Below, piece by piece: positions 42,192 through 57,410 of a stretch of 64,000 nt of DNA. Within the stretch, counting starts at the first letter, position 1. The number at the start of each line of letters is the position of its first letter. Under the pieces are notes generated by a model. The model was not told the DNA's origin and searched no databases. It saw only the letters and a list, made by a program, of their open reading frames with translations. The DNA is taken from contig NC_086107.1 in the NCBI RefSeq assembly GCF_963921235.1, positions 111,726,001-111,790,000 on the forward strand, read 5' to 3'. A program made the position numbers and the translations under genes. The stretch is from Mobula hypostoma (taxonomy: Eukaryota).

Positions 42192-42350
42192 TCAAGTCCC
42201 TTCATCCAGGGTGTGCTTGTCAAACAGGTACTCGCCCATTCCGCTGGTACGGCCCACAGTCAGCCCCTTCAGGCTTGTCACGTGATCTCCCAGCTTCTTC
42301 ATGAATTCCACGTTGCTGTTCAGGAAGTTGGTCTCCAGGAAGCTGCACAG
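42192..42350 (-). CDS. Ferritin B coding exon 4
   Basis: Acceptor TTTTTCAG, LCSFLE...[13 protein letters not shown] at 42194-42192. Confidence 0.93.
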   Translation of the reverse strand: MCSFLETNFLNSNVEFMKKLGDHVTSLKGLTVGRTSGMGEYLFDKHTLDEGT

Positions 42351-45300
42351 CTGAAAAATAAAATTATAAACGGCTTTTCACTTCCACGTGACAAAATCGC
42401 CGTGAGGTAAACCTCCGCAATGCCTGTCTGCGGACTGCAATCTGACAGAGTCTGGGGGGTGGCCAGTATCTATGACGTTTAGTGGAACAGCGTGGTGCAT
42501 ATGGGTCAGATGAGAGGGTCACTTGGTTTATTTGTAGTTATTTAGGGATACAGTGTGGAACAGGCCCTTCTGGCCCTTGGAGCCACACTGCCCAGCAACC
42601 CCTGATGACCCCGACATAATCACGGGACAACTTACAACGACCCGCTAGCTGACCCTGTAGGGTTGTTGGACTGTGAGAGGAAACCAGAGCACCCGGAGAA
42701 AACCCAGGCACTCCACAGGGAGGACGTACAGAGACTCCTTGCAGGGGACACCAGGATTGAACTCTGAACTCTGGTGCCCCGAGCCGTGTGTTAACTATCT
42801 GTCTACCTCCTAAAGAAAGCCATTTGAAGTCTTAGCTTCCACCACTCTGGGAGAAGTGAATTCCCCAAAGACTCACAGACTCATGGGAAAATTTTCAGCT
42901 CATCTCTGCCTGAAATGGGTTTCCACTTATTTTTAAATATTAACCCACCCCCCCGCCTACAAGTTTTAAAGTTCAACTTTAAATTTAAGTATCATTCGAC
43001 CATACATGAATGTAGCCAAGCAAAACAGTATTTCTGGGATCAGAGAGTCCTCTGTCAGGCAGCTCCTCGGGATGAACCTTCACACAGGCCCTTGCACCTT
43101 TCTCTACACCCTCTTCACAAACTCACAGAGCCACCATCTCTTCTGCGCTACAGTCATCCCACAGTGGGAGTGATGCTCTGGGCAAGCAGGGAAGGGCCCC
43201 TCTCTCCAACAGCCAGGCCAGGTGTGGGTGCCTGTCGGTGGGGCCTGGCAGTGAGGCATTCTGCCAGATGGTCTGGACCCTCTGGTCAGGGAACCAACCC
43301 ACATGCGTAGAATCCTTCTCCTGCAGTGGCTGTCCACTGCCTGATGGCCAGGTGGATTTTAGATCGACACGTGAATATCCTGCGAACGGATGGATATGGA
43401 TAATGTGCAGGCAGGTGCGACTAGTTTGATTTGGTATGACTAGACTGATGAGAAATTGACCTGGTCCAGCTTGTTCTTCAGTCGAGCGAACACTAGAGGG
43501 CAGCATTGAGCAAACACTGGAGAGCAGCATTGAGCAAATACTGGAGGGCAGCATCGAGTGAATACTGGGGGGGGCAGCATTGAGCAAACACTGGAGAGCA
43601 GCATCGCGCGAACACGAATTCTGGAGAGCAGCACCGAGTGAGCACCAGAAAGCTGCACCATCTGGCTGTCTCCTCCCCTGGGCGAACCTGCAGCCTCGGC
43701 CTTGGCCTCGCCCGCCACAGCCAAAGCGATGCAACACCCCAGGTGTCGATCTAGCCAATAAATCAGTGAACAGAGCTAAATACCTGTTAAATCTAGCTTC
43801 TATCTAACCTACCATTATTAATTCTCCAGACTTGTTTTCTATAGATCTGATGCTTACTCTGGTAACTTTTTTTTCAAACATCAAAAGAATTAAGCCATTC
43901 AGCCCATCAAGTCTGCTCTGCCATTCCATCATGGCTGATTTATTATCCCTCTCAACCCCATTCTTCTGCCTTCTCCCCATAACCTTTGACGGCCTTACTA
44001 ATCAAGAACCTATGAACCTCCGCTTTAAGTACACTCCGTGACTTGGCTTCACATCCGCCTATGGCAATGAATTCCACAGATTCACCACCCTCTGGCTAAA
44101 GAAATTCCTCCTCATCTCTATTTCAAAGGGATGTCCTTGTATTCTGAAGTTGCGGTAAATATGTCATTTACTTTTTTTTTTCTTGTGACAGTTAATAGTG
44201 AACTCTTGCCCAAGAATCCTGATCTCTCATGCGGATGGCAATCTGGCTGCACCAATAAATCCTGGGATTTCCTTTCTCCCTGCGTCATTGATTACGGAAG
44301 ACGGCCGCTGGTGTAGTGGCACCAGCACTGGACTTCAAGGTGAATGGTCCCAGGTTGGAATCTGGCTGGCTCCCTGCATGCTTTCCATCCTTTCATCTAG
44401 AAACTCATTTTTGTAAAAAAATACAGACAAATGCTAAGGAATTGGTAAAAAATGGCACCCGACGCACCACAGGGATCAAAGCAACAATCATTGAGCAGGC
44501 TCGCCACTGCCAGGGAAACCCCTCCATAGGGCTCAGATACCTGAGGATCCTCCTTATTGGACGCAGTCTGGTGCAGGTCAAGGAGAGACTTGTTGATGTT
44601 CCTCTGTAGGTCGAGAGCATCCTGTGTGGCTTCCAGCCCGTTCCTCCACTTGCTCTTGGCTGGATTCTGTGTGAGTAAGTGGCAAAATCCAAGTTACACC
44701 TCGGACTGGCCTGTCCCCTCTGTTTTTTGCAGGCAAATCCCCAATTAAGAGAGACCTGTGTGTTTATTTATTGTGATACAGTGCAGAATTGGCCCTCCTG
44801 GCCCTTTGAGCTGCACTGCTCAGTAACCCCGGATTTAACCCTAGCCTGATCACGGGACAATTTACAATGACCAATTAGCCTACTGACAGGTGAGTCTTTG
44901 GACTGTGGGAGGAAACCAGAGCACCCAGAGAAAACCCAAACGTTCCATGGAGAGTCCTTGGAGATAGCGTTGGAATTGAGCTATGAACTATGCTACCATG
45001 AGGCCCCATACTGCAGTACCAGGGTCTAGGGAGCTCCATGCCTTTCACCTTCTCCATTCAATCCTTGGATCTTCATGACACTGCAGGTACATCTACTTTG
45101 CCTTAGGGAAGGCTTGCTGAGAAAGGCTGGATCATGCTTCCTCTTCCAACAGTACCCTTAACGTGACAAAACTCCTGGGACTTCACATCAGAGTTACACT
45201 CAGTGTCCACGTAATTGGGTACTTGCTGTAGCTAATAAAGTGGCCTCTGAGTGTATGATTCTGCTGCTATAGCCCATCCACTTCAGGGTTTGACGTGTTA

Positions 45301-57300: not shown

Positions 57301-57410
57301 TTCTTTACCATAGCAAGGTACACGTAGGAGGTGTAGTACTTGAGGCTGATGAGTTGGTTGATGGATACCTCGCACTCCCGGTGCAGGTTCTGTCTCACCT
57401 GCGACTGCAT
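42192..57410 (-). CDS. Ferritin gene B: divergent lower/light-type ferritin subunit, 177 aa, join(57410-57309,47765-47619,44666-44541,42350-42192)
   Basis: Spliced product: [177 protein letters not shown]. Exon sizes equal those of gene A, all junctions are GT-AG, and there are no stops or frameshifts. Introns are 9543, 2952 and 2190 nt. Confidence 0.93.
43484..43659. repeat. 24-bp minisatellite (about 7 degenerate units) in ferritin B intron 3
   Basis: Unit approximately GAGCAAACACTGGAGAGCAGCATT. Confidence 0.8.
44541..44666 (-). CDS. Ferritin B exon 3
   Basis: Acceptor CACACAG, 42 codons (..WRNGLEA..DLH..DPQ), donor GTATCT. Confidence 0.92.
45195..45540 (-). mobile_element. Tc1-derived non-autonomous element remnant
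   Basis: Reverse complement of the 13645-13810 and 14800-14925 pieces. Confidence 0.6.
45790..46210 (+). mobile_element. Penelope-like 3' fragment
   Basis: Same motif order as 1-440. Confidence 0.65.
47619..47765 (-). CDS. Ferritin B exon 2
   Basis: Acceptor TTTTGTAG, 49 codons, donor GTGAGC. Confidence 0.93.
48003..49310. mobile_element. Retroposon-like repeat (+, 48003-48692) inserted in the tail of a Rex1/Babar fragment (-, 48700-49310)
   Basis: The Rex1 tail AAGTCAAGTCAAGT at about 47986-47999 resumes at about 48700. ORF 48854-49351 ([23 protein letters not shown]). Confidence 0.7.
49703..49984. repeat. Long interrupted (GT)n microsatellite
   Basis: Read directly. Confidence 0.95.
50704..50872. 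repeat. 77-bp tandem duplication (about 2.2 units)
   Basis: ATGCCTGTGGGCACAGTGACGTTTTGCTC at 50726 and 50803. Confidence 0.8.
53425..54712 (+). mobile_element. Degenerate CR1 LINE (RT to 3' end) in ferritin B intron 1
   Basis: ORFs with [29 protein letters not shown] and RGDLMEVYK, broken by stops and frameshifts. Confidence 0.9.
57309..57410 (-). CDS. Ferritin B coding exon 1
   Basis: MQSQVRQN...SYVYLAM, donor GTAAAG. Confidence 0.93.

Follow-up and report, generated by a model that had tools for sequence, protein, structure and literature searches.

Whether a cartilaginous fish possesses a ferritin of the type called "lower" (L) subunit in amphibians, and how old such a chain would be, is the question raised by a stretch of 64,000 nucleotides of the Mobula hypostoma genome (contig NC_086107.1, positions 111,726,001 to 111,790,000, forward strand), referred to below as the window. 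Two ferritin genes were found in it by a six-frame motif scan, both on the minus strand: a compact one, here called gene A, and a long one, gene B, extending from 57410 to 42192. The reading favored here, to which we assign a probability of about 0.72, is that in gene B the ray has its ortholog of the vertebrate lower chain, an ancient non-catalytic ferritin subunit. The gene itself is already annotated: RefSeq contains its product, without a single difference, as XP_062918968.1 (Mobula hypostoma, "ferritin, lower subunit-like"), and gives the same label to many of its orthologs, so that the preliminary description of this stretch, made from the sequence alone, went too far in presenting gene B as a discovery. 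What the analysis adds is evidence in favor of a third lineage of ferritins, ancient and inactivated separately, and the observation that rays have lost iron-handling residues to an unusually complete degree.

According to the available text of a vertebrate ferritin phylogeny (PMC4117605), vertebrate ferritins form two groups, H and M/L, and teleost M is orthologous to mammalian L; sharks are unmentioned in that text, and its accession table contains neither Rana, nor P07797, nor the term "lower". Three ferritin subunits in the seahorse are cited in the accessible parts of PMC9224801 and PMC12707632. A teleost L was thus already in print. The seahorse study of three ferritin subunits is reportedly that of Oh et al. 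from 2016. The available portions of PMC11719527, PMC13026281, PMC8886333, PMC4771812, PMC5568229 and PMC13720417 hold nothing on shark lower chains, and no publication on a chondrichthyan lower ferritin or on a gnathostome-wide lower clade was found in a search whose coverage excluded subscription journals and much of the fish literature. If the lower clade is real, a non-catalytic ferritin subunit would be older than the split between sharks and bony fishes, the label "L" would span two different paralogs, and the ferroxidase centre would probably have been lost twice. It would also provide a natural series for the role of inactive subunits, leading from frog L, in which the acidic residues are kept, to the ray chain, in which these and a channel residue are lost. 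The gain is evolutionary and mechanistic, with no new gene family involved.

Structure of the gene

Gene B is a four-exon ferritin gene encoding a product of 177 amino acids without internal stop. Its coding exons (102, 147, 126 and 159 nt; 534 nt in total) are all in phase 0 and have the same sizes as those of gene A, and its introns, all of the GT-AG type, measure 9543, 2952 and 2190 nt, 14.7 kb in sum; those of gene A are 0.1-0.4 kb long. The product matches Pfam PF00210 with 99 bits (cut-off 24.5), and the GC content at third codon positions (GC3) is 0.78 vs. 0.46-0.49 for GC in the introns. The intact open reading frame, exon sizes, splice sites and polyA signal reported in the preliminary description were all confirmed, the AATAAA beginning at 42066; its picture of 15 kb of introns filled with transposable elements held in part, through a reverse-transcriptase fragment in intron 1 and intron stretches that recur elsewhere in the window. 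The features of the two genes are as follows.

57309..57410, minus strand: gene B exon 1, 34 codons, helix A, GT donor, matching XP_062918968.1; K27 codon at 57341-57339, Y34 codon at 57320-57318
47619..47765, minus strand: gene B exon 2, 49 codons, helix B; top PDB match bullfrog L ferritin
47696-47682, minus strand: codons of A61, E62, R64 and Q65 in gene B exon 2
44541..44666, minus strand: gene B exon 3, 42 codons, loop and helix C; Q107 codon at 44606-44604
42192..42350, minus strand: gene B exon 4, 52 codons and stop, helices D and E, with S131, S140, N141, F144 and S154
42061..42066, minus strand: AATAAA polyA signal of gene B, about 125 nt past the stop, the sole such hexamer in 41900-42200
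57393..57398, minus strand: candidate internal splice donor of gene B, a GT after codon 4
3884..5252, minus strand: gene A, compact four-exon ferritin (exons 5252-5151, 4736-4590, 4488-4363 and 4042-3884)

Use of the candidate internal donor would yield a form of 144 amino acids devoid of helix A. Lower-chain isoforms of this length, joining codon 4 to exon 2, exist as RefSeq models in Pristis (sawfish), Hemiscyllium (bamboo shark) and three Salvelinus species (chars), corresponding to rows P0003, P0139, P0349, P0357 and P0360 of the protein set. None of the retrieved H and M proteins, a biased set, has this pattern.

Loss of the ferroxidase centre

Residues are given in human H numbering, anchored on gene A and on an equid H chain (P0058), and the ferroxidase centre is taken as E27, Y34, E61, E62, H65, E107 and Q141, as listed in the available text of PMC2603009. 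Gene A keeps all seven of these residues; gene B retains two, Y34 and E62, which sets it apart from the catalytic H and M chains. Codon by codon, the sequence bears out the seven substitutions named in the preliminary description (E27K, E61A, E64R, H65Q, E107Q, E140S and Q141N) as well as the two retained residues, and adds to them D131S, in the three-fold channel, and A144F. The marks of lower chains, K27, the loss of Q141 (here N141) and S154, are all present. The codons of K27 (AAG) and Q107 (CAG) are each one base away from a glutamate codon.

The changes extend to residues handling iron outside the centre. The nucleation acids of mammalian L are E53, E56, E57, E60 and E136, equivalent to H positions 57, 60, 61, 64 and 140 (PMC2603009); in gene B, H positions 57 and 60 are still E, and positions 61, 64 and 140 are occupied by A, R and S. 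As described in the accessible part of PMC10114856, D127 and E130 (H 131 and 134) act in iron uptake, and E57 and E136 (H 61 and 140) in its transit. Since five residues of the centre are missing from gene B, along with the two transit acids and one acid of the channel, it is very likely, judging from its residues, that its product has lost fast iron oxidation. Without E61, E64, E140 and D131, it would probably also nucleate iron less well than the L chains of mammals or frogs.

Among proteins of known structure, the best sequence match of gene B is bullfrog L (P07797; PDB 1RCD, 1RCI and 1RCC), with E values from 2e-64 to 9e-63 and 58% identity. The two share K27, Q107, a residue other than Q at 141, E62 and S154, and the bullfrog residues K27 and Q107 given in the preliminary description are correct. 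However, E61, E64, H65, D131 and E140 of bullfrog L correspond in gene B to A, R, Q, S and S, and gene B is longer by one residue in the D-E loop, as it is in comparison with human H. From H and M ferritins, gene A included, gene B does not differ in family (PF00210) or in four-exon layout, and identity is 47-57%, with gene A at the lower end (47%, 84 of 178 positions); the difference lies in the centre, complete in all 44 H/M-type chains compared. Mammalian FTL resembles gene B in having no ferroxidase centre, and it co-assembles with catalytic H (PMC2603009 and PMC11719527, available text). In mammalian L, though, a K58-E103 bridge (K62-E107 in H numbering) is present and the nucleation acids are kept (PMC2603009), whereas gene B has E62 and Q107. 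The mammalian L-like copies in our set carry K62, G65, E141, N154 and E107, a substitution set unlike that of lower chains. Gene B also lacks, within 57250-64000, a match to the iron-responsive element that characterizes the FTL 5' untranslated region.

Orthologs and the lower-chain signature

Orthologs of gene B have 69-97% identity in sharks and rays and 59% in the chimaera Callorhinchus, all with open frames. A profile built from shark and amphibian lower chains detected further members in coelacanth, lungfish, sturgeon, eel and salmonids. Residues were counted in 16 full-length chondrichthyan, 15 amphibian and 6 bony-fish lower chains, and in the 44 H/M-type chains chosen for comparison. 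The chondrichthyan orthologs keep from zero to four of the seven centre residues, and conservation per column averages 0.60 among them at the centre, compared with 0.83 at other positions; for the predicted dimer interface the mean is 0.86. These values, together with the frames open across chondrichthyans, agree with the proposal of the preliminary description that gene B encodes a constrained non-catalytic subunit. In relatives, entire lower-chain frames lie on short contigs (P0141, 683 nt; P0146, 1522 nt), which points to spliced transcripts there.

Two marks of lower chains are the loss of Q141, absent from all 37 of them, and S154, a residue outside the seven-residue centre that is present in 12/16 chondrichthyan, 13/15 amphibian and 6/6 bony-fish lower chains and in none of the 44 others; together with F137 they are common to different lower-chain lineages. 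Position 27 is K in 15/15 amphibian chains and in all five bony-fish chains with data, and in chondrichthyans K in nine, E in six and N in one, so that K27 is not fixed in cartilaginous fishes. Position 107 is Q in 16/16 chondrichthyans and in 5/5 bony fishes with data; amphibian L has E107 in 14/15, with bullfrog alone carrying Q107. Fewest-change counts require seven changes at position 27 and three at 107, where most simply Q would have been gained at the base of the lineage, lost in amphibians and, as a separate and recent change, regained in bullfrog. The K/Q signature is thus probably old, and bullfrog probably a poor witness for Q107: the argument that this signature places the lineage before the split of sharks and bony fishes stands when made through bony fishes, and fails when made, as originally, through bullfrog. 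Nor is the K27-E62 salt bridge that had been suggested required, since E62 is absent in four of the eight full-length chondrichthyan chains with K27.

Among bony-fish lower chains, those of Salmo (NP_001134896), Latimeria (XP_005991027) and Protopterus (XP_043938097) fall in the same clade as gene B and, where the N-terminus is usable, share K27 with it, as well as Q107; bony fishes have S141. The coelacanth chain has T30, A61 and N131 in common with rays, while teleost lower chains differ in keeping D131, in having K61 and in their long branches. The lower chain of Mobula birostris (P0123) shows seven residue differences, compared with five and seven for stingray orthologs, possibly a sign of faster change; its modelled N-terminal extension is frameshifted in the M. 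hypostoma window.

Predicted fold and role

The AlphaFold model of the gene B product is a ferritin bundle (pLDDT, the predicted local distance difference test, 80) with helices at 11-39, 46-72, 93-120, 124-160 and 163-168, and its template modeling (TM) score is 0.81-0.82 to solved ferritins, with 0.82 to bullfrog L 1RCD. For a predicted two-fold heterodimer of gene B with gene A's sawfish ortholog, the score, which measures likeness to solved ferritin dimers and not binding, was 0.67 vs. 0.01 for the best control. Of 78 solved pairs, 51 reach the mark used, as do 2 of 108 mismatched ones; contact agreement between runs was at least 98%, and the pLDDT of the partner was at least 90.

From these data a role can be proposed. 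The gene B product would fold as a normal four-helix bundle and enter 24-mer cages with catalytic chains such as that of gene A, which is the likely catalytic partner; by analogy with the rest of the family, such co-assembly is probable. As it would add no oxidation site, fewer catalytic sites would be present per cage, and gene B would act as a structural or rate-setting subunit, diluting the catalytic sites and perhaps stabilizing the shell rather than nucleating mineral.

An unlikely alternative, although the one that survives best, is that the ray chain acts outside iron storage, by forming a cage of its own, handling other metals, or serving as a structural or secreted protein. In its favor, the loss of the centre is accompanied in the 16 chondrichthyan chains by loss of E61 (0/16) and E140 (0/16) and, mostly, of E64 (2/16) and D131 (4/16), no iron-responsive element precedes gene B within the window, and helix-A-less isoform models recur. 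Yet H118 and C130 are retained in 16/16 of these chains and E134 in 14/16, the dimer interface is conserved and the linkage to catalytic ferritin genes persists.

Phylogeny and age of the lower-chain lineage

About 400 proteins were fetched, 72 of which, including 26 lower chains, entered the main tree, computed with a mixture model; alignments had 152-176 columns. An apparent Xenopus chimera (P0020), fused or tandem models, partial isoforms and two ferritins with bacterial names, resembling host contamination, were dropped, and the unalignable N-terminus of lungfish P0217 was trimmed off. Mammalian L is represented by divergent L-like copies and not by canonical FTL.

Lower chains form one clade with support 99/95, apart from FTH1, teleost M, tetrapod M and the clade of gene A, a chondrichthyan non-FTH1 group with support 100/99. 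The lower clade spans sharks, rays, chimaera, amphibian L, coelacanth, lungfish, sturgeon, eel and salmonid chains. It is recovered with 99/98 from 55 rows, with 95/80 after removal of 24 centre, channel and inner-surface columns, and with 100/98 when 18 further rows, long branches among them, are also omitted. Origin of the amphibian lower chains alone is rejected by the approximately unbiased (AU) test (p=0.024 and p=0.020). A chondrichthyan-only origin from the gene A clade is likewise rejected under LG+G4 (p=0.0005-0.005), as well as by the mixture model when every column is kept (p=0.0115). The genomic sequences that carry the lower and the catalytic non-FTH1 chain are equally long in 17 of the 19 species for which both lengths were listed (read by eye), an indirect sign that both genes are on the same chromosome; FTH1 is on a different sequence from the lower chain in Callorhinchus and lungfish. 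Ancient orthology of the lower chains, older than the split between sharks and bony fishes, is therefore regarded as probable on the strength of these comparisons. The lower-chain paralog would date from before that split, with a tandem duplication at the non-FTH1 (M-type) locus as its probable source, and would have lost its di-iron centre early. The amphibian-L-like identity first proposed for gene B, distinct from H and M and not derived from the neighboring gene A, is upheld by the tree, and the early date proposed with it is largely supported, one AU test excepted.

Several observations weigh against this reading. In the excepted test, made under the mixture model without the functional columns, the grouping of chondrichthyan lower chains with the gene A clade is not rejected (AU p=0.107). 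The alignment is short and the backbone weakly resolved, and branching order within the lower clade departs from the species tree, the coelacanth joining chondrichthyans with 89/88 in the 72-row tree. Lower chains change faster than gene A (72-79% vs. 88-91% identity in four species pairs), which favors long-branch artefacts. Both exceptions to the shared-chromosome pattern are salmonids, and genes A and B are identical at only 11 of 25 interface positions.

One rival explanation is convergence: the separate derivation of chondrichthyan, ray-finned and amphibian lower chains from local M-type genes, with similar losses of the centre, and their grouping by long-branch attraction. Besides the AU test with p=0.107, this explanation draws on the single-base distance of K27 and Q107 from glutamate codons and on the repeated changes at both positions, and the location of lower and M genes on one chromosome also fits local duplication. 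Nevertheless, we consider it improbable, because the clade persists without functional columns and long rows, S154, F137 and the loss of Q141 are common to the lineages, and a tree with two independent origins is strongly disfavored (p-AU 4e-5 and 4e-9), falling short by 70.7 log units when searched more fully. Moreover, mammalian L-like copies, equally devoid of the site, carry other residues in its place.

Slightly less probable still is a true orthology between the lower chain and mammalian FTL, with a single loss of catalysis and mammalian L as a diverged member. A clade of lower and mammalian L-like chains is not rejected by AU tests (p=0.21, 0.08 and 0.18), and the mammalian sample lacks canonical FTL; however, no free tree joins the two, the L-like copies nest among tetrapod M chains (96/96 without functional columns) and differ in N154, E107 and other substitutions, and teleost M is orthologous to tetrapod L in the available text of PMC4117605. 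The idea that gene B is a decaying duplicate or young pseudogene, its frame open by chance, is very improbable: it changes faster than gene A, and seven differences were counted in M. birostris and five and seven in stingrays, but frames are open in sharks, rays and chimaera, change is concentrated at the centre, GC3 exceeds intron GC, and splice signals and polyA site are intact.

Returning to the ancient lower lineage, a wider scenario can be put forward only tentatively. A third, already non-catalytic ferritin lineage may have been ancestral to jawed vertebrates and lost in amniotes, mammalian L being inactivated separately from an M chain, and the ray chain, having gone further in its loss of centre, nucleation acids, channel aspartate and iron-responsive element, may work as an iron-blind brake on cage loading, a conserved helix-A-less splice form perhaps tuning assembly. 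No amniote lower chain was found in the best 120 of 719 matches, the best 120 of 3644, or 150 representatives, which is weak evidence of loss.

Three further proteins deserve mention. Callorhinchus V9LBS9 (P0171), with 7/7 centre residues, branches in two trees as the sister of the lower clade (95/77 and 81/81) and might be a catalytic sister paralog. Marsupial FTHL17 or heavy chain A-like proteins (the P0214 cluster) group with tetrapod M (99/95), which suggests that an M-type gene distinct from FTL persisted in mammals. The dropped Xenopus tropicalis model A0A803JGT1 (P0020) appears to join lower exons 1-3 to a catalytic-type exon 4 and, if so, implies adjacent lower and M genes in Xenopus.

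Upstream elements and possible iron regulation of the two genes

The two genes also differ upstream of their coding regions, where the following elements were found.

5347..5382, minus strand: iron-responsive element in the 5' untranslated region of gene A (Rfam RF00037, 42.6 bits vs. cut-off 34), the sole one in the window
57509..57524, minus strand: GC box (57524) and WGATAR motif (57514) about 100 nt 5' of the gene B ATG, from a motif scan; possible promoter core

Upstream of gene B, no iron-responsive element was found by Rfam in 57250-64000, 6.7 kb reaching to the end of the window, with E values up to 5, an untranslated exon past the window being possible; sub-threshold Rfam matches in this region were taken as chance or repeat hairpins. 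The level of gene B is therefore probably set by transcription and not by iron-controlled translation. Its GC box and WGATAR are single short motifs that could be due to chance, and there is no TATA-like hexamer near its ATG; gene A instead has a GC box and TTTAAATA. The arrangement of a GC box with WGATAR resembles erythroid promoters.

Surroundings of the ferritin genes

Of the 104 long stop-to-stop frames in the window, 90 were compared with Pfam, 14 being omitted as duplicates, repeats or ferritin exons. No other host gene was found among the 90, a scan that short exons would escape. Five frames gave matches, all to reverse-transcriptase or retroelement-associated families; ALKBH8_N is presumably one of the latter.

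53504-53911, plus strand: reverse-transcriptase fragment in gene B intron 1 (Pfam)
23322-24470 and 28057-28554, minus strand: reverse-transcriptase fragments (Pfam)
14058-14501 and 12957-13292: ALKBH8_N-type matches (Pfam)

A long inverted-repeat hairpin with sub-threshold microRNA matches lies upstream of gene B at 60221-60394; repeats that match it occur at 10936 and 57014, and the hairpin is therefore probably a repeat element itself. Finally, the region 13666-19773 contains near-identical duplicated blocks (1439 nt at 99.9% and 968 nt at 100%), which may result from a local duplication of recent date or from an error in the assembly.

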